Below, piece after piece: positions 665 through 17,177 of a stretch of DNA of 40,774 nt. Origin of the DNA: Promethearchaeota archaeon (GTDB lineage Archaea; Asgardarchaeota; Lokiarchaeia; Sigyniarchaeales; SOKP01); assembly GCA_030599585.1 (NCBI GenBank), contig JAUVNS010000027.1:1-40774 (forward strand), read 5' to 3'. How positions within the stretch are numbered: position 1 is the first letter of the stretch; each line of letters starts with the position of its first letter. Below the pieces are notes generated by a model. The model did not search any database and was not told where the DNA came from. It was given only the letters and a program-made list of their open reading frames with translations. The translations under genes were made by a program, and so were the position numbers.

Positions 665-1780
665 TTATAATTCTATATTTTTTCCTACTCGAATTAACGC
701 CTTGTGCCCCTTTCGATCAATATATAAATAGACGGGCTTTATCTTCATTTTTCGTGCTATAAGTGCCATTTCTTGATCTCTCGTTGCTAGTCCATACCTT
801 TTTTCAATAAGGGCAAGCCTTAAGTTGCCGTCAGAGTGAGTTTTAAGTCCACTTGGTAATGGAATTACTTCGTATCTGTCATTGAGCGTATTAATAACTG
901 ATTTATTGTTATGTAAGCACTCATCCATAACTATAATTTTTTTTCCAAGGAAAATTTTTCTGATAGATTTGCTGATTTTTTCGCGGAGATTAAACCTCTC
1001 GTATAATTCTAACTTGTTAATAACTACGCTTTTAGGTTGAAGTATTGAAACTTCTTCGCTAGTTATATCTTTAATTAACTGAGAAATTGAGGTAGTATGC
1101 TTAGTTCGTTTATGTTGTTCCAAGGCAGGGAGCGTCTTGAATTTTCTATTACATAGGTCGCATTTAATTTTTTTACTTAAATGAGACGAATTAATGTGCT
1201 GGTTTAACGAGTTTAGAGAATCTAAAATTTTGCCACAATGAGAACAAACGAATTTCTTCTTTTGACAAACGCTACTTTTAACGTGTTGATTCATCGCATT
1301 TTCGTTTTTAAAGCCTTTTTTACAATGTGGACAAGTGATACTTTTTTTTGTACACGTTGCTGCTTTCTTATGCTGTTTTAACCCGTTTTCCGAGGCAAAT
1401 CTCTTGTCGCAATTAGAACACGAAAAGAGCCCCTCTTTTTTAATGTGGTCGCTTAGTTCTTTTTCTGTTTTAAAACCGTTCTTACATTTTGGACAAGAAT
1501 ATTTAGTTTTGTGCGCGTCTTTTTGATGCTGGGCTAATGATTTTTGTGTCTCGAATTTTTTTTTACAAGTATTGCACACTAATTTTTTTTGATGAGCAGA
1601 TTTTTTATGTTGATTAAGAGAGATTTCTGAAGTAAAAACTTTTTTACATTCCGTGCATCTATGAATATTATGACCTGTTGATTTATAATGCTGATTTAAT
1701 GCGTTAGATGTCTTAAAACTTTTATTACAGGTAGCGCAAATATAGAGTTTTTCAATTGGTTCCGTTGTAATTGAATTCAT
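665..1780 (-). CDS. Tandem C2H2/C2HC zinc-finger protein (8 fingers) with C-terminal PIN-like (DUF5615/Mut7-C type) domain
   Basis: Eight CxxC-x3-F/L-x5-L/M-x2-H units in aa 14-228; C-terminal IVMDE...SD...LATRDQEM fits the PIN DE / D / TxDxD pattern. Confidence 0.8.
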   Translation of the reverse strand: MNSITTEPIEKLYICATCNKSFKTSNALNQHYKSTGHNIHRCTECKKVFTSEISLNQHKKSAHQKKLVCNTCKKKFETQKSLAQHQKDAHKTKYSCPKCKNGFKTEKELSDHIKKEGLFSCSNCDKRFASENGLKQHKKAATCTKKSITCPHCKKGFKNENAMNQHVKSSVCQKKKFVCSHCGKILDSLNSLNQHINSSHLSKKIKCDLCNRKFKTLPALEQHKRTKHTTSISQLIKDITSEEVSILQPKSVVINKLELYERFNLREKISKSIRKIFLGKKIIVMDECLHNNKSVINTLNDRYEVIPLPSGLKTHSDGNLRLALIEKRYGLATRDQEMALIARKMKIKPVYLYIDRKGHKALIRVGKNIEL

Positions 1781-2706
1781 CTCCTTCCTCTCAAAATTAC
1801 GTAATTTGCTTCCTGCTTCATAATTTCTGCTTCATAATCTTCGTCTAAATCTCCAATAGCTATAAGATCAAAACTTTGCTCATTAATTTCCTTTTCATCA
1901 AAAGGGATACCATAATTTATATCAAAATAATCAACATCCTCATCGTTTATTATATTACCTTCGTAATCAGCCTCCCTATACCTTGGATAAATAGATATTG
2001 TTAGTTCTTTTGGATTAATTATAAATAAAAAACCAATATCACCTGCCCATAGTATTACTTTTTCACCTTCGATAATACTTGTACTTTTAGAAACTCTGCT
2101 TCTTTTACCGGGAGAAATTATATCAAAACCCCAAAAAGCGTTATATTCTTGACAGATATAAAGCCTTCTCTTTAAATTTTCGTGAGAATTTTGGATTTCA
2201 GAAAATCTTATACTATTTGTAGCCCCTTTTCCTGAATATTCGTCAGGCTCGTAGTAATAAAGAACTGCGTCTCCTTCGTTTGGAAACCCTAAAGTTAATT
2301 TAACAATTTCCTTATTAAATGTATAGCTGTTTGCATCTGTATCGTAACTACATTCAACTAAGAACCATTTACCATTTATCGTTATTTTAACTAATTCCCA
2401 ACCGTCACTAGTTTTTTTTAAATTAAAAATACTTTTTGAGGGTTTAAGGTAATACACGTATTCCCATTTACTCTTGCCTTCTTCTTGATGGGAGGCTTGC
2501 GCTAGTTTATCCTTATCTGTTAATTTTTGAACGATCTTCCTTATATTTGAACTAAATCCCGTATCCCTTAGCATTTGAATAGAAAACGCTTCTCTTGGAT
2601 GTTCTTCGAAAAATTTTAGCACGGCATCTTCAGTTGTAATTATAGCCTCGTCTAAATTAATTTTTGAAAGTGGAATTCCTTTGATGTTCTTATTTTTCTT
2701 TTGCAT
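1777..2706 (-). CDS. Hypothetical protein, possible N-terminal winged HTH
   Basis: 309-aa ORF; N-term VLKFFEEHPREAFSIQML...IRKIVQKLTDKDKL...YVYYL resembles a wHTH; 4-nt ATGA overlap with the zinc-finger gene. Confidence 0.65.
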   Translation of the reverse strand: MQKKNKNIKGIPLSKINLDEAIITTEDAVLKFFEEHPREAFSIQMLRDTGFSSNIRKIVQKLTDKDKLAQASHQEEGKSKWEYVYYLKPSKSIFNLKKTSDGWELVKITINGKWFLVECSYDTDANSYTFNKEIVKLTLGFPNEGDAVLYYYEPDEYSGKGATNSIRFSEIQNSHENLKRRLYICQEYNAFWGFDIISPGKRSRVSKSTSIIEGEKVILWAGDIGFLFIINPKELTISIYPRYREADYEGNIINDEDVDYFDINYGIPFDEKEINEQSFDLIAIGDLDEDYEAEIMKQEANYVILRGRR

Positions 2707-2816
2707 CGATCTATCTAGTAAAAATTAGGTTATATAAAGGTTTTGATCTTAATTAACTTGTTTAACTTAATTATGCAATAATTTTCTTTCTACTAAAAAA
2801 GTAAACTTTTATAAAG

Positions 2817-2849: not shown

Positions 2850-3053
2850 CGAAAAGGAGGGGAGTAGTTTGGAAGTTTACTATTACTACTTTAAAGCTTA
2901 CTAGCGTAAAGTTGACCTAACATTTATATAGGAAAATGGTTGTTATTATATTGTAAAATCACCTCGGATTTTTATTAATTCGATAAAATAAAGACAAAAT
3001 CGAGACTTGCGTAAAATAAAAAGATTTTCTAAAGATGAATAGAACTTCCAAAG

Positions 3054-3323
3054 TTGAGTAAAATACCTGAGAAAAACAATAATTATAAAGAGGAAATAGT
3101 TTCTTTCGCGTACGATTTAAAGAGCGGTGGGAGTTACGTCAAGAACGTTTTTTACGAACTCGAAACCGATAAGGCGGTGATGTTTGGAAGGAATGGCGAC
3201 GATAAAGTTCTTTTTATCCCTAAATCAGCAATTAAAGGTGGGTGGATAAAAGATAAAAAAAAAGCTCAAAACATCGCAATAAGATTTGGAATTGAACTAC
3301 GCTGGAGACCCAATAAAACTTAA
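3054..3323 (+). CDS. Small hypothetical protein (beta-rich), co-oriented with uvrD
   Basis: 89-aa ORF with TTG start, ending 48 bp before the helicase gene. Confidence 0.6.
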   Translation: MSKIPEKNNNYKEEIVSFAYDLKSGGSYVKNVFYELETDKAVMFGRNGDDKVLFIPKSAIKGGWIKDKKKAQNIAIRFGIELRWRPNKT

Positions 3324-3371: not shown

Positions 3372-5525
3372 ATGACGCAAAAAAAAGATGGTGAACAGGA
3401 GGAATTCATCTTTGAGTTTTACGACGAAGACTACGCGAAATCTCTAGAGGGTGCCGAAAAACCAGTAATAACTGAGGAATACAACGAGATCGATTTTGAA
3501 ACGGATTTAAACGAAGAACAACTCGAAATTGTAAACAACATCCAAGGGGCAATGCTGGTCATTGCCGGAGCGGGTTCTGGAAAGACGAGGACTATCGTCT
3601 ATTCCGTTGCGAAACTGTTAACGTCGGGAGTAAAACCTAGCCAGATAATGTTAGTGACCTTTACCAATAAAGCCGCTCACGAAATGATTAAACGCGTCGA
3701 AATTTTACTTGGTAAAAAACCAAGAGGTATCTGGGGAGGGACGTTTCACTCGATTGCTAATAGATTCTTAAGGATGTACGCAAAAACGCTCGGACTAAAG
3801 CCTAATTTTACCATAATGGACGAGACTGACGCCAAAGGGTTAATGAAATTGTCAATTGATAAAGCAGGCGTAAAAGATCTCGAAGAGCGGTTCCCTACTT
3901 CGGCAATGGCCAAATCAATTTTATCGTTTTCGATTAATTGTAACAAATCTATTAAAGAAGTAATCCAATGGAAATACGGACAGTTTGATAGCGATCCTGT
4001 GCTTGCTAAATTAAACGAAGTAATTAAAATTTATAAAACTAAAAAAGCAGACGACGGTTTATTAGATTTCGACGACTTGCTTGTATTCTGGAGTAGATTG
4101 CTCGACGAAAGATCTATAGCTAAACTAATCGCTAGTAAGATTAAATACGTGTTGGTTGACGAATATCAAGATACTAACTACATCCAAGACGAGATTATTC
4201 ATAAAATCGTGTTGCAAAATCCAGATCGAAACATCATGGCGGTTGGCGACGATGCCCAGAGCATATACGCGTTTCGAGGTGCGAATTTTCAGAACATTTT
4301 GAATTTCGAAAGTAATTACAAAAAATGTAAAAGATACACCATTACCTACAATTATCGGAGCGCCCCTCAAATATTAGACTTAGCAAATAATTGCATAGAA
4401 CACAACGAAAATCAATTTAAAAAATCCATGAGAGCTACGAGACCGAGCGGTGTTAAGCCATTTCAAGTAAATTTAGGAGACGACAAAGACCAAGCAAGGT
4501 TTATCGCAAACCAAATTTTAAAATTGCGCCAAGATGGCTACAAACTGAACGAAATGGCAATTCTCGTACGAGCGGGGTTTCACACGATTAGGATCGAGCT
4601 GGAATTAAAAGCAAAAAACATCCCTTACGAAGTTCGAGCAGGAGTGGCTTTCTTTGAAAAAGCCCACATCAAAGATATGATTGCTCACCTACGCGTAATT
4701 GAAAATCCTTACGACGAAATCTCGTGGTCTCGAATATTTGGTATTATTTCAGGTATAGGTACCGTTTCCGCGTCAAAAATTTTTGAAGCGATCTCGAAAA
4801 CGGACGATCCGATCGTTAGCGTTTCGAGTAAAACATTTATCGATAAGCATCTTAAAGGCTCAAGAATCTCAAAAGATGGGATAAAAAACTTACTTTCTCA
4901 CGCGAAAAAATTAAAGGGGTTTACAATTGACGACGCTCCAACTGAACTAGTGAAAAAGTTAGTAGGGGCGCTTGAGGATTATATCAAAGCCAAGTACGAC
5001 AATTGGCAAGATAGATTAGAAGACTTACATCAATTAGGCGTTTACGCTCAAAACTATCCTAACACTCAGAAATTTCTGGAGAATTTAAGCTTGAATGCCT
5101 CGGCTTTAGAATCTAAAACGGTTTTAATGGGCTCTCAAATCGAAGACGAAAAACCTGTAGTGTTATCTACGGTTCATCGGGCTAAAGGGTTGGAGTGGAG
5201 GGTAGTGTTCATCCCAATGTTGTGCGAAGATTCGTTTCCTTCCAGTAGAGTAATTGGCGACCCCGACGCGTACGAAGAAGAAAGAAGGGTGTTTTACGTG
5301 GCAACAACAAGGACTAAGGACGAGTTGTATCTTATTTCGCCGGCGGTAAGAAATACCTATCGAGGCCCTCAGACGGTGCGGGTATCTCAGTTTGTCGGGG
5401 AATTAAACCCAAAAGTCTATAAAAGATCGTCAGTTCGCTATAAACCAACTCCGATTAACAAGAAGAACTCAAAAAAAAGCAAAGGATCGTTTTTTACTAC
5501 GGCAGATAAACTAGGTGAGAAATAA
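3372..5525 (+). CDS. uvrD: UvrD/PcrA/Rep-family SF1 DNA helicase
   Basis: AGAGSGKT, TFTNKAA, DEYQD, VGDDAQSIYAFRGA, NYRS, STVHRAKGLEW, EERRVFYVATTR. Confidence 0.95.
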   Translation: MTQKKDGEQEEFIFEFYDEDYAKSLEGAEKPVITEEYNEIDFETDLNEEQLEIVNNIQGAMLVIAGAGSGKTRTIVYSVAKLLTSGVKPSQIMLVTFTNKAAHEMIKRVEILLGKKPRGIWGGTFHSIANRFLRMYAKTLGLKPNFTIMDETDAKGLMKLSIDKAGVKDLEERFPTSAMAKSILSFSINCNKSIKEVIQWKYGQFDSDPVLAKLNEVIKIYKTKKADDGLLDFDDLLVFWSRLLDERSIAKLIASKIKYVLVDEYQDTNYIQDEIIHKIVLQNPDRNIMAVGDDAQSIYAFRGANFQNILNFESNYKKCKRYTITYNYRSAPQILDLANNCIEHNENQFKKSMRATRPSGVKPFQVNLGDDKDQARFIANQILKLRQDGYKLNEMAILVRAGFHTIRIELELKAKNIPYEVRAGVAFFEKAHIKDMIAHLRVIENPYDEISWSRIFGIISGIGTVSASKIFEAISKTDDPIVSVSSKTFIDKHLKGSRISKDGIKNLLSHAKKLKGFTIDDAPTELVKKLVGALEDYIKAKYDNWQDRLEDLHQLGVYAQNYPNTQKFLENLSLNASALESKTVLMGSQIEDEKPVVLSTVHRAKGLEWRVVFIPMLCEDSFPSSRVIGDPDAYEEERRVFYVATTRTKDELYLISPAVRNTYRGPQTVRVSQFVGELNPKVYKRSSVRYKPTPINKKNSKKSKGSFFTTADKLGEK

Positions 5526-6559: not shown

Positions 6560-8188
6560 TTATCTCATCCAAAATTGATTCTGGCATTTTTCGCAAAATT
6601 TAGCAGATTTTCTATTTACTGCGCCGCAATTGTCACAATACTTAATATTATTTTTTATTGGAGGTTCGGTCTTAAAAGTTTTGACATCAATAGGGAATTT
6701 TGAGCCTTTTATAGCATAATTAAGTTTTGTATCGTTTTCTTTTACTACAATAATTCCTCTAACCGATTTCGTTTGAGTTAGATTTTCACTTACCCACGCC
6801 ATATACCTTTGTATCTGACCAACAACTTTATCGCTTCCTTTCCCTCTTTTCAATTCTACAATTACATAACTATCCTGTTGATCTTTAAAAAGAACGTCTA
6901 TAAAACCAACGGAAGTTTTATACTGTCTTCCAATTAACTTCAATCCGTCTTCAAGTATTTCCGGATTTTTAACAATTGTATCTTCGATTTGCCTTTCATA
7001 AACTCGTTCATTAGGGCGATTTTTTTCGTAATTTAAAACAGTCTTCCATTTTGCTGAATCTAAATTCTTCTTAATAATTCCGTTTTTATCAGTAATGCTC
7101 TTTCTTTCTAACATTTTAGCCAAATTAGAAACTTCGAGAGACTTCTTAATTTTACCGGTTTGTTTATACGCAATGCTGAGAAGATCATAAGTTTTTGGAA
7201 TCTGCTGTTTATAAATTATATCTCTAGGATGCCATTTAATCTTGAAAACGTTATCGCAGAGTAGAAAAGCTTTTGTGTAATTCTTTACTTTAAGATGTGT
7301 TCTTATTAGATTGTTCCAAACGGTAATATTTTTATAATGGTATTCTAAAGAACGCTCAAAAGCTTTAATGGCATTACTATAATCACGAGCAATACTATAC
7401 GAAATACCTAAATAATTCCATACTGATCCGTTTTTTGGATTTTTCTCAATAATGTTTTTAAAAGTAATAATTGCGTTTTTGTAATCTTTTGCTTGATTAT
7501 ACGCTATACCTAAATATTGTTGATGATATTGATGATTTGGTTCAATTTCTATCGCTTTTTTATACATTGTAATAGCTTCATTATGCTCATTTTTGGCTCT
7601 ATAAACGTGACCTTGAAGAATCCAGGTAGAAGCGTCCTGCGAATTGATCTTTAATGATTCATTAAGAGATTCTAGTGCTTTCTTATAATCTTTCCTTACA
7701 TAATAATAAAAACTGCCAAGTCTTCGCCAAATATTATGATCATTGGAATTAATTTCTAAAGCTTTTTCAAGGGAATGAAGTTGTTCGTCGCGGTTTCCTT
7801 TCATTGCATGTGCTTCAGCGAGACCGCACCAAATCTCATGATCATCAGGATCTAACTTTATAGCTTTTTTATAAGCATTTATAGATTCTTCATATTTTTC
7901 TATAATGCTATATTTTATTCCAAGATGATACCAAGCTTCTAGATTATTAGGATCACATTTTAATGCGTCTTGATGTTTTTCTATAGAAAATTCTATCAGT
8001 TTTATTGCTTCGTTATGCTGATCCATTGTAAGAGCTTTATTAAAATAAGCGTGTCCTAAGTTATTCCAGATTTCTACGTTATTCATATCAAACTCCAATG
8101 CGTGGTTGTAAGCTTCTATTGATTTGTCGTATTCTTCCTTGTCATAATATTCATCACCTTTTATCATCCATGTGTAAAATTCAGACAT
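6560..8188 (-). CDS. TPR-repeat protein fused to NucS/EndoMS-like (DUF91) PD-(D/E)XK nuclease and C-terminal zinc ribbon
   Basis: About 9 TPRs; ERQIED...GRQY...GFIDVLFKD...VIVELKRG...VGQIQRY; CDNC...CEKC. Confidence 0.85.
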   Translation of the reverse strand: MSEFYTWMIKGDEYYDKEEYDKSIEAYNHALEFDMNNVEIWNNLGHAYFNKALTMDQHNEAIKLIEFSIEKHQDALKCDPNNLEAWYHLGIKYSIIEKYEESINAYKKAIKLDPDDHEIWCGLAEAHAMKGNRDEQLHSLEKALEINSNDHNIWRRLGSFYYYVRKDYKKALESLNESLKINSQDASTWILQGHVYRAKNEHNEAITMYKKAIEIEPNHQYHQQYLGIAYNQAKDYKNAIITFKNIIEKNPKNGSVWNYLGISYSIARDYSNAIKAFERSLEYHYKNITVWNNLIRTHLKVKNYTKAFLLCDNVFKIKWHPRDIIYKQQIPKTYDLLSIAYKQTGKIKKSLEVSNLAKMLERKSITDKNGIIKKNLDSAKWKTVLNYEKNRPNERVYERQIEDTIVKNPEILEDGLKLIGRQYKTSVGFIDVLFKDQQDSYVIVELKRGKGSDKVVGQIQRYMAWVSENLTQTKSVRGIIVVKENDTKLNYAIKGSKFPIDVKTFKTEPPIKNNIKYCDNCGAVNRKSAKFCEKCQNQFWMR

Positions 8189-15347: not shown

Positions 15348-17177
15348 CTAATTGGAATTTGCTATTGAATTCAATTGTAAAATAATACTTTTTAGATTTT
15401 CTGAAATTTCATCTTTATTTTTTATTGATTTAGACAGAGCTTTAACTAAATCTGGTTTTGAAACTTGTTCTAAACATTCTGTTTCGATTAATTCTAAAAG
15501 TTCTTTCGACAGTTTTACCCGGGTTCTTATATTTTCAATTTCTTGAGGGTTCCATTCATTATCATTCTTTTTAGGATATTTATTATTAAGCATAGTCACC
15601 CATTGTTCTGATGTAAATTCACCTTCAAATTCTCCTTCAGAATCTGGTTCTTTTCCTACTAAAAATAAGTCGATTCCTTCTCGAAAACCTAATTTTCTTA
15701 AACCAGGTTCTTTAAATTGTTTTATCTTTTTTGAATCTTTATCTACTACTATAATTACCCGTTTTTTGTTATTTCTTAAAAATTTGGCAAAAGATAGTGC
15801 TTGAATGTTGCTTTCAGCGTTTATAAACAATATTCCTGCTTCAAAATGAGTTTTATCATTTATCAATTCAAATAGGATAGGGAATGCTTTATACTCAGAT
15901 TCACCCTCAACTATAACAAATATTTTTTCAAAGAATAAAAAAGAACTACGAAAACCAATTGAAAAGGCTAGGTCTTTGAGAAAATCGCCAATTTGTTCAT
16001 AATCTTCATCTGTTATAAATAATATTTCAGTTTCATCATTGTTATTTAGAGTAAAATTAACTATTTGATTAGGAGGAAAATTATCAATTAATTTTATTGA
16101 ATGCGTAGCAATTAAAACTTGTACATTACCTTTTTTTGAAAAATCATTTAAAATGTTTAATAAGTTAGAAATCTGGAAATAATCGAAGTGAAGATCAGGT
16201 TCATCAAAAGCTATTACGAAATTTTCATTTAGTTCTTCAGTAATTTGAAGATTTGACCATTCATAAATTCCTAGCATTATTTGCTTTCTCTTACCTGTAG
16301 CTTCAGACTCGAATCTGACTTTATCTCCACTTTTTTTTATAATATTAAACTCATCTAAATTCAATCCTTGAAGTGCATTATATTCGGGGTTTATATCAAT
16401 CCTTTCAATATCCTTACAATATTTTTTTATTATATCATTAGCTTCTTCGATTTTTTGATTGCATATACCTAAAACAACAGTAGTTATTTTTTTAACTTCT
16501 TTTTCAATATTCAATTCTTCTACTTTTTCTTTAAGAGTGTTTATTAGAATTTTTATCATTTCTCTTTTAGGATCAGGAGATTCCTCAGAAGAAAGCAAAA
16601 TGAAATTTGGTAGAATTGTTTTTATATTTTTCGTAGGGATTATTTTTTCGATTTGTTTGTCGCCTGGAAATTCTTCTCGTTTGATCTTCAATTTATCTTT
16701 CATGCTTGAAACAGTTTCACTTGAACTTAATTCAATGTCATATTTGTTACATAATTCTTCATAAGGTCCTTTAAAGCGACCTAAACCAAGATTATCTAAA
16801 TCTGTGCCAGTTCCTAAAGTGTATATAAAATAATATAGTTCTGGATCATTTACTTTAAATTTTTTATAAATTGTAATAAAATTATTATCTAAACTTGGTT
16901 CATATGTTAGGAAGAATTCTTTTTCTTCTTCCGTTATTTGAAACTTACCAGAAAAGATTACCTCCAAATTCTCAATTTTTACGTTACTATTGATATCTAC
17001 CTCATTAATTTTTTGATGGGGCTCAAGAAATAACTTAAGAGCGTCCAAAGTGGTTGTTTTTCCTCCACCATTTTGTCCTATCAAGATGGAAATTTCATGA
17101 ATTGGCATTGAAATCATTCCTTTCACACTCCGAAATTTTTCATAAGATAATTCTAATAATTTAATCAATATCACCAT
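15348..17177 (-). CDS. OLD-family ATP-dependent nuclease (ABC ATPase + TOPRIM)
   Basis: GQNGGGKTT, FDEPDLH, IATHS; TOPRIM IVEGESE and VDKD. Confidence 0.9.
   Translation of the reverse strand: MVILIKLLELSYEKFRSVKGMISMPIHEISILIGQNGGGKTTTLDALKLFLEPHQKINEVDINSNVKIENLEVIFSGKFQITEEEKEFFLTYEPSLDNNFITIYKKFKVNDPELYYFIYTLGTGTDLDNLGLGRFKGPYEELCNKYDIELSSSETVSSMKDKLKIKREEFPGDKQIEKIIPTKNIKTILPNFILLSSEESPDPKREMIKILINTLKEKVEELNIEKEVKKITTVVLGICNQKIEEANDIIKKYCKDIERIDINPEYNALQGLNLDEFNIIKKSGDKVRFESEATGKRKQIMLGIYEWSNLQITEELNENFVIAFDEPDLHFDYFQISNLLNILNDFSKKGNVQVLIATHSIKLIDNFPPNQIVNFTLNNNDETEILFITDEDYEQIGDFLKDLAFSIGFRSSFLFFEKIFVIVEGESEYKAFPILFELINDKTHFEAGILFINAESNIQALSFAKFLRNNKKRVIIVVDKDSKKIKQFKEPGLRKLGFREGIDLFLVGKEPDSEGEFEGEFTSEQWVTMLNNKYPKKNDNEWNPQEIENIRTRVKLSKELLELIETECLEQVSKPDLVKALSKSIKNKDEISENLKSIILQLNSIANSN

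Follow-up and report, generated by a model that had tools for sequence, protein, structure and literature searches.

Tandem arrays of C2H2 zinc fingers characterize eukaryotic gene regulation and seldom occur in prokaryotes; in engineered zinc-finger nucleases, such an array is tethered to the non-specific cleavage domain of FokI. Here, we explored a two-gene locus of an Asgard archaeon in which, similarly as a concept, an array of this type is joined to a nuclease-like domain. The window, that is, the whole stretch of 40,774 nucleotides analysed (contig JAUVNS010000027.1 of assembly GCA_030599585.1, a promethearchaeote of the order Sigyniarchaeales), encodes at one end a 371-amino acid (aa) protein, hereafter ZF-PIN, and, directly upstream of it, a protein of 309 aa. 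Our analysis establishes that ZF-PIN combines a C2H2 array with a COG4634-type PIN-like domain that keeps its conserved acidic residues, that in its own clade ZF-PIN is coupled translationally to a partner containing a winged helix-turn-helix (wHTH) domain, and that the gene pair behaves as a rare mobile cassette in a variable genomic region. We favour, with a probability of about 0.55, the reading that ZF-PIN is a finger-targeted nuclease effector encoded by an accessory cassette and that the upstream protein regulates or inhibits it.

Among described systems, the nearest family to the nuclease-like domain of ZF-PIN is that of the COG4634/DUF5615 toxins coupled to DUF433, whereas the nearest architecture is that of human ZNF451. 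The PIN-COG2442 (DUF433) pair has been shown experimentally, by growth arrest and rescue, to be a toxin-antitoxin (TA) module, the RNase activity of the toxin being inferred from other VapCs and unmeasured (PMC3834315). Such VapBC-family modules, for instance, Synechocystis VapBC10, resemble the ZF-PIN locus in that the nuclease-like domains are homologous, with acidic motifs in the same positions, in that the nuclease-like gene is the second in a coupled operon that starts with a gene for a winged-helix-type protein (PMC3834315), and in their sporadic distribution. Unlike these modules, ZF-PIN fails the Pfam model, adds one to eight C2H2 fingers and a helical lead-in, and has as its partner, in some clades only, a 309-aa protein with a wHTH and a beta-domain that is unrelated to DUF433. 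Within the phylum, 15 of the 25 canonical DUF5615 genes have a tightly coupled upstream open reading frame (ORF) of 73-130 aa, all sharing one motif, and each of the six that were scanned proved to be DUF433 (E 1e-18 to 1e-26). Thus, the original prediction, made from the DNA alone, that PINs of the DUF5615 type are TA-associated RNases stands with respect to the TA association (DUF433 pairs; PMC3834315, PMC5499597), whereas the RNase part is itself an inference in PMC3834315. Human ZNF451, a SUMO-pathway and transcription cofactor, shares with ZF-PIN the order of a long C2H2 array (11 fingers) followed by a PIN-like domain, PIN_11 (PMC5499597), which in ZNF451 mediates protein binding. By contrast with the domain of ZF-PIN, PIN_11 forms its own cluster apart from the Mut7-C-like group, according to the grouping in that paper and not to a direct comparison (PMC5499597). 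There is no evidence of shared descent between ZNF451 and ZF-PIN, and the similarity of their fingers is generic.

The C-terminal domain of ZF-PIN is assigned to the PIN-like domains because a profile-profile match, structural leads and language-model leads agree. In the hhalign comparison, the query was a trimmed alignment of the C-terminal domain of the ZF-PIN family, and the references were 27 sequences of DUF5615 and 19 of Mut7-C, taken from genomes within the phylum or order of the host, together with 3 VapC-PIN sequences and 15 receiver domains from the host genome. The query matched DUF5615 at 94.5 % (E 8e-8, 70 columns, score 45.8), compared with 97.9 % for DUF5615 against Mut7-C as the positive control, and the match held at 94.3 % once the window's own clade had been dropped from the query. 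Sixty column-shuffled queries gave a null score of 10.7 +/- 1.9 with a maximum of 16.8, and the reversed query scored 10.1; receiver domains and VapC, the other controls, yielded 3 % or less (0.06 % for VapC-type PIN, where the reference, made of 3 sequences only, is a weak profile). In the resulting pairing, MDE of ZF-PIN falls on DEn, SD on G.sD and (T/S)KD.EM on T.DkDF. One family member has, in addition, a sub-threshold PIN_5 match (E 0.003). The AlphaFold2 (AF2) model of the domain, computed with the family alignment, has a mean predicted local distance difference test (pLDDT) score of 82, with the core above 90, and shows the element order beta-alpha-beta-alpha-alpha-beta-alpha-beta-beta. 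The top VIA rows are enriched in PIN nucleases, namely, Utp23 (6.1), the PIN domain 5f4h (6.0), AF0591 (6.0) and Utp24 (5.9), with 3i8o, 3ix7, SSO1118 and VapC2/21 as further PIN rows, and in the ESM Atlas all look-alike clusters with a Pfam name are DUF5615, PIN_10 or Mut7-C, at scores of 0.78-0.83 that make them a lead only. Foldseek against the PDB returned no match at E <= 1e-3 for either this domain or the model of the upstream protein; a PDB sequence search with the stand-alone homolog P0025 gave chance-level matches alone (E >= 0.08). The COG4634/PIN_10/PIN_16/Mut7-C group has been described as a shortened PIN fold that lacks H3 and S3 and for which there was then no solved structure (Matelska et al., PMC5499597); the modest structural scores against classical PINs fit such a shortened fold. 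From these comparisons, we conclude that the C-terminal domain is best regarded as a divergent, new family within this group, in agreement with the predicted PIN-like domain of DUF5615/COG4634 type, for which hhalign, VIA, the ESM Atlas and residue conservation now all speak.

The best structural matches include Utp23, Utp24 and Fcf1 of pre-ribosomes and, of the eight fingers, finger 1 scores best with the JAZ/U1-like model of RNA-binding fingers, as might be expected of a housekeeping RNA-processing factor that would resemble the PIN nucleases Nob1 or Utp24 of ribosome biogenesis and read structured cellular RNA with its fingers. We consider such a role highly improbable: the domain was found in only 2 of the 400 species genomes of the phylum (in one of them as a remnant), the other genomes of the genus that were searched yielded no copy, its gene belongs to a cassette that moves from one context to another, and its profile homology is to the TA-associated COG4634 group rather than to Nob1 or Fcf1.

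An exhaustive phmmer search of 1.84 billion representative proteins retrieved 17 relatives of the C-terminal domain at E <= 1e-3, nearly all of which consist of a C2H2 array, with one to eight fingers by motif parse, followed by the same domain; P0025 (133 aa) is the one complete stand-alone form. The acidic motifs on which the original prediction relied, MDE (residues 285-287), SD (316-317) and TRDQE (333-337), are conserved family-wide, with D286 and E287 found in 17/17 sequences, D317 in 18/19, D335 in 19/19 and an acidic residue at the position of E337 in 18/19. The core of the family alignment (A3) reads h-h-MDE-x-VGN ... Y-x-V-x-x-LP ... SD-x-x-LRL ... WGLVSKD-x-EM ... PVY-L ... LIRI, and is preceded, even in P0025, by a lead-in motif, L.LYE..L.E+I, modelled as a helix at residues 35-47 of the 141-aa segment (pLDDT about 81-83). 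Database annotations of the gene pair offer nothing beyond 'hypothetical protein', and no description of an archaeal C2H2-PIN fusion was found in the literature searched. The family is very small, with 17 representatives and 2 of 400 genomes of the phylum.

D286, E287, D317, D335 and E337 are the putative catalytic residues. Five near-invariant acids in a family with divergence down to about 30 % identity are hard to explain without catalysis or metal binding, and we lean towards ZF-PIN being an active metal-dependent nuclease. The same conservation disfavours the alternative that ZF-PIN is a non-catalytic DNA- or chromatin-binding regulator, in which the array would bind DNA in the manner of a transcription factor, the PIN-like domain would serve oligomerization or partner binding and the wHTH protein would be a co-regulator. 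This alternative has a precedent in the 11-finger ZNF451 with its protein-interaction PIN-like domain (PMC5499597), and it is compatible with the account of Matelska et al. (PMC5499597), according to whom Mut7-C-like domains have a deteriorated PIN fold and differ in activity. Yet the sporadic, cassette-like spread of ZF-PIN, with many truncated copies, is more like that of a selfish or defence gene, and the finger array, as detailed below, provides arguments on both sides; all told, we deem a regulator of this kind unlikely.

The array matches the generic zf-C2H2 model (PF00096; 9.2e-31, 104.9 bits against a cut-off of 25.2) in eight stretches and zf-C2H2_jaz (PF12171; 1.7e-31) at 108.2 bits, so that the two models are not discriminated. 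Together with Pfam, a motif parse reproduced the eight predicted fingers, five C2H2 (H-x4-H or H-x5-H), two C2HC (H-x5-C) and one without the fourth ligand, four zinc ligands being present in 7/8 motifs. The parse also confirmed the predicted helix residues, with Gln at position +6 in seven fingers of eight, Ser, Thr or Asn at -1, mostly Ala, Ser or Gly at +3, and no Arg at -1, +2, +3 or +6 in any finger, as well as the absence of TGEKP from the inter-finger linkers, which span 4-8 residues from the last ligand to the next first Cys. The H-x5-H spacing is restricted to finger 1, and the short linkers are unlike those of JAZ proteins. On these data, the dsRNA specificity suggested in the original prediction is weakened to a candidate property. 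The array departs from the Krueppel-type DNA-binding poly-zinc-finger proteins in that H-x3-H and TGEKP are absent and the helix residues are nearly uniform. Uniform helices without a base-reading Arg and the lack of H-x3-H and TGEKP also speak against the DNA-binding regulator introduced above, whereas the finger period of 25-29 aa, near the canonical DNA-binding period of 28 aa, speaks for it, as does the finger pair at aa 177-223, which passes the model of the C-terminal finger pair of ZNF451 (PF23107; 33.8 vs 30 bits). As to the substrate of the favoured nuclease, RNA appears slightly preferable to DNA because the fingers are of the non-canonical H-x4/5-H kind, their uniform helices lack base-reading residues and the relatives of the domain are toxins with a presumed RNase activity; because of the canonical finger period, DNA stays a candidate, if a somewhat less probable one. 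Sequence-programmable recognition is unlikely because the helix residues are near-uniform. When searched on its own, the array found, beyond its own family, only generic matches, at 26-35 % identity, to fungal, insect and metagenomic finger proteins, which would seem to carry no information on where the array came from. Hence, the suggestion in the original prediction that the locus bears on the origin of eukaryotic poly-zinc-finger proteins has to be regarded as unsupported.

Fingers and effectors have been combined differently elsewhere, Regnase-1 and the engineered zinc-finger nucleases being the closest in concept and the TniQ selectors of Tn7 the closest Asgard case of tandem C2H2 fingers on a protein of a mobile element. 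The cleavage domain of the engineered zinc-finger nucleases has the PD-(D/E)XK fold of FokI, unlike the PIN-like fold of ZF-PIN. Regnase-1/MCPIP1 (Zc3h12a) is, similarly to ZF-PIN, a PIN-like endonuclease with substrate binding aided by a zinc finger (PMC5499597), but its single CCCH finger is C-terminal to a PIN of the PRORP/NYN type, whereas the multi-finger ZF-PIN array is N-terminal to a reduced one of the Mut7-C type. The Tn7 TniQ target selectors of Asgard archaea and Hydrothermarchaeota likewise have rare tandem C2H2 fingers, which provide a mobile-element protein with its targeting module (10.1101/2025.07.27.667033); they differ from ZF-PIN with its PIN-like effector, H-x4/5-H fingers and missing TGEKP, one TniQ array having near-canonical linkers and metazoan-like fingers. 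By the JAZ and C2H2 models, the only other C2H2-bearing gene in the genome is at L102 702-1886 (G000:C15:20201-21385); its 394-aa product carries two C-terminal C2H2 fingers behind a large N-terminal domain and is another case of fingers on a module other than a transcription factor.

The coordinates of the two genes and of their parts are collected in Table 1. As predicted, the two ORFs overlap in an ATGA, and the purine-rich GAGGAAGGAG lies directly 5' of this start overlap; because of this combination, translation of ZF-PIN is probably coupled to that of the upstream gene. Both start codons are backed by N-termini conserved among orthologues, those of ZF-PIN being four proteins of 68-86 % identity. 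A TATA-like TTTATATA, within the cassette boundary (2772/2795), is a putative archaeal promoter that likely gives rise to a short-leader or leaderless mRNA.

Table 1. Features of the ZF-PIN locus, in window coordinates.
Feature	Position	Strand	Basis or properties
ZF-PIN gene	665..1780	-	ORF, 371 aa, isoelectric point (pI) 9.8, net charge +43
Upstream gene	1777..2706	-	ORF, 309 aa, pI 5.0
Eight C2H2-type fingers, aa 13-228	1097..1744	-	Pfam and finger-by-finger motif parse
Linker with conserved helical lead-in, aa 229-279	944..1096	-	Family alignment A3 and AF2 model
Divergent reduced PIN-like domain, Mut7-C/COG4634 (DUF5615) group, aa 280-368	677..943	-	
wHTH of upstream protein, aa 23-90	2437..2640	-	
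All-beta domain of upstream protein, about aa 92-250	1957..2433	-	AF2 secondary structure, pLDDT about 70-90
Acidic C-terminal tail of upstream protein, aa 251-309	1780..1956	-	Net charge -12, pI 4.05
ATGA stop/start overlap (1777-1780) and purine-rich GAGGAAGGAG (1781-1790)	1777..1790	-	Sequence
TATA-like TTTATATA	2731..2738	-	About 25-32 nucleotides 5' of upstream gene ATG
Extent of two-gene cassette	665..2795		Synteny with G004 and run X5 contigs

Searches of Pfam, NCBIfam, PADLOC and PHROG found no family for the upstream protein. We found 13 relatives at 51-85 % identity and two further ones, at about 42-45 %, in G035 and G042; a contig scan of the genomes with the upstream family returned a single short contig, which is the G035 locus. 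In the AF2 model (pLDDT 77), a winged helix is followed by a large all-beta region and by a low-confidence acidic stretch that leads into a terminal strand. The winged helix, in which the recognition helix SSNIRK..QKL is invariant and the wing contains W81, substantiates the predicted wHTH-like nature of the gene, the domain having been located in the N-terminal part of the protein by AF2 and structure searches. For the all-beta domain, neither Foldseek nor VIA gave a meaningful match, the whole-model lists being filled by winged-helix matches, and the ESM Atlas searched with the protein yielded only leads below 0.9 to small HTH clusters. The acidic tail ends in a conserved beta-strand and shows poly-Asp/Glu expansion in distant relatives (alignment A2, L006/L007 ORFs); its net charge of -12 contrasts with the +43 of ZF-PIN.

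All close relatives of ZF-PIN for which enough upstream sequence is available (L088, L089 and L092, 67-73 % identical in all three modules) have an abutting upstream gene in the same order. Furthermore, G035, which belongs to another family of the order, has an upstream-type gene of 43 % identity directly ahead of a C2H2 gene that carries the linker motif of the family and is broken off by the contig end. Taken with the loci discussed below that have only one of the two genes, this shows that the upstream partner is clade-specific and not family-wide. Truncated or finger-less copies are seen in L091, L100, L101 and G034. The one at L091 3914-4399 is a finger-less C-terminal domain of 161 aa, 70 % identical to that of the window, on a 40-kb contig; it is preceded by an ORF for a small membrane protein and is either a decayed copy or a stand-alone form. 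In G034, the remnant (L002 1410-1631, G034:C56; 73 aa) comprises only the C-terminal half of the PIN-like domain and is enclosed by two large genes that consist of NQPIGNWNVS..VT.M repeats. The partner-less ZF-PIN gene of L097 (374 aa) is flanked on both sides by paralogous opposite-strand 90-aa genes, at 1267-1539(-) and 2949-3221(-), both starting with M(S/R)EL(P/A)DI(Q/D)FKSAR, and these might represent either an alternative companion gene or the termini of an element.

Under the favoured reading, ZF-PIN would act as a toxin- or effector-type nuclease: the finger array would hold the protein on nucleic acid, and the PIN-like domain would cleave the bound molecule in a divalent-metal-dependent manner. 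The upstream protein would autoregulate the operon via its winged helix and would restrain or gate the nuclease, perhaps through an acidic tail that mimics nucleic acid on the basic fingers. That the upstream protein both regulates the operon and restrains the nuclease is a tentative proposal, to which we assign slightly less than an even chance. As in type II TA (VapBC-like) modules, the ORFs are bicistronic and overlap, with a DNA-binding domain encoded in the first gene; unlike in such modules, a cognate small antitoxin is not always present, given the four loci without a partner and the 309-aa size of the partner elsewhere.

Several observations weigh against this reading. Pfam searches with three different cuts of the isolated C-terminal domain give no family at E <= 10, and NCBIfam holds nothing relevant for ZF-PIN; PF18480, run over the genome at E <= 1e-3, misses ZF-PIN and finds only the Mut7-C gene on C9, so that, by the model's own threshold, the domain is not a member of Pfam DUF5615. 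Against Mut7-C, hhalign gives 5 % (4.7 % with the N-terminal 100 aa of Mut7-C). Some PIN-like domains, such as PIN_11 of ZNF451, are non-catalytic interaction modules (PMC5499597). Four distant ZF-PIN loci (L094 and L096-L098; 338-374 aa), in unrelated neighbourhoods, are without the partner and, conversely, the complete 6.0-Mb genome G042 has an upstream-type gene alone; inhibition by the upstream protein is therefore no family-wide requirement. Finally, the upstream protein is atypical in size for an antitoxin at 309 aa and is unrelated to DUF433 (hhalign 0.9 %). Thus, of the antitoxin role that had been predicted for the upstream gene, the coupled partnership in the window's own clade is upheld, whereas a family-wide partnership is not, and neither the size of the protein nor its lack of relationship to DUF433 suits a classical antitoxin. 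The main rivals to the favoured reading are the non-catalytic regulator considered above and a sensor role of the upstream protein in a defence module, which has to be judged in the genomic context.

The host genome (4.85 Mb, 52 contigs) encodes Vps28-like proteins above the Pfam cut-off, which none of the 14 control prokaryotes does, so that an Asgard host is well supported. Within the phylum, the C-terminal domain is intact in the host alone, the second of the 2/400 genomes being G034 with its remnant, and a first draw of 24 other genomes of the genus yielded no copy. All five PF00096 hits of the host are in the ZF-PIN gene, whereas multi-finger arrays are unusual among the relatives searched, most of which show at most one single-finger hit. 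From 2795 onwards, the window is homologous at the DNA level to the congener G004, through an 89-aa ORF, UvrD and an RNase H-like gene; to the left of 2795, the genes of G004 are unrelated. Contigs of an independent run from marine sediment (X5) that bridge the gene junction match the window only over 665-2772, from the ZF-PIN stop codon onwards, and then continue into unrelated sequence. The synteny break in G004 and the limits of the X5 match delineate a cassette of about 2.1 kb in differing contexts. The possibility that the contig, C38, is a contaminant was considered and rejected, G004 having 81-84 % identical DNA over the adjacent genes (the shared region comprises the 89-aa ORF, UvrD, at 90 % protein identity, and the RNase H-like gene).

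The neighbourhood of the cassette includes a UvrD/GajB-like helicase, a TPR-NucS/PD-(D/E)XK fusion at 6560-8188, which matches the PADLOC candidate PDC-S02 (2e-23), and, at 15348-17177 within a rad50-mre11-herA-nurA cluster, an ATPase-TOPRIM protein with OLD and GajA model matches; the PDC-S02-matching fusion and the OLD/GajA-like gene fit the picture of a defence island. It is in this setting that ZF-PIN could belong to an abortive-infection-type defence against viruses or mobile elements, with the upstream protein as a sensor (all-beta domain plus wHTH), and not a simple antitoxin, that releases or activates the nuclease once an invader is sensed. Against this, neither cassette protein has a PADLOC or PHROG match (in PADLOC-DB 2.0 at E <= 0.01, only neighbouring genes match GajA/B-like, OLD and PDC-S02), a scan of viral contigs found no ZF-PIN relatives, the distant ZF-PIN genes lack such a partner and, from a reading of the sequence by eye, the key Z-alpha residues seem unconserved. 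A sensor-gated defence module is, in our estimate, a doubtful alternative, if less so than the regulator.

Several further features were observed around the cassette. At 2812-2847, just outside its boundary, an intergenic tandem repeat of the pentamer AAGTA (CTTTA on the gene strand) has 5.8 copies; contigs of run X4 stack at the repeat (summed word depth about 1029 in bin 2737-2850), a pile-up which suggests that it is a widespread simple repeat, and it may mark a recombination-prone junction. The 89-aa ORF directly upstream of UvrD, at 3054-3323 (+), has no Pfam, PADLOC or PHROG match and is kept at the same position in G004 (102 aa, L114 6574-6882). The genome has three genes for UvrD-type helicases, at 3372-5525 of the window, G000:C12:89180-91324 and G000:C11:118933-121011. 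The C12 copy, whose protein shares 91 % identity with that of the window and whose flanking genes differ, could stem from duplication of the island or from a second strain in the bin, for which the contamination estimate is 8.9 %.

The findings presented here show a C2H2 array in use in the closest archaeal relatives of eukaryotes, as the putative guide of a nuclease encoded by a mobile cassette, and not as a transcription factor. A bolder, and rather unlikely, extension would make ZF-PIN a natural Asgard zinc-finger nuclease, in which an array varying from one to about eight fingers targets a minimal PIN to a structure or repeat in nucleic acid and the partner, with its wHTH, beta-domain and acidic mimic, gates it, the whole constituting a new class of archaeal module for immunity or addiction and setting a precedent among prokaryotes for the architecture of ZNF451. 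The toxin-antitoxin and defence biology of Asgard archaea is still poorly charted, and ZF-PIN, if active, would add to archaeal biology of this kind a new combination of effector and partner. It would also be a natural counterpart of the engineered zinc-finger nucleases, built on the smallest known catalytic module of the PIN type (about 90 aa). More generally, ZF-PIN provides a concrete, expressible test case for binding by non-canonical archaeal C2H2 fingers.

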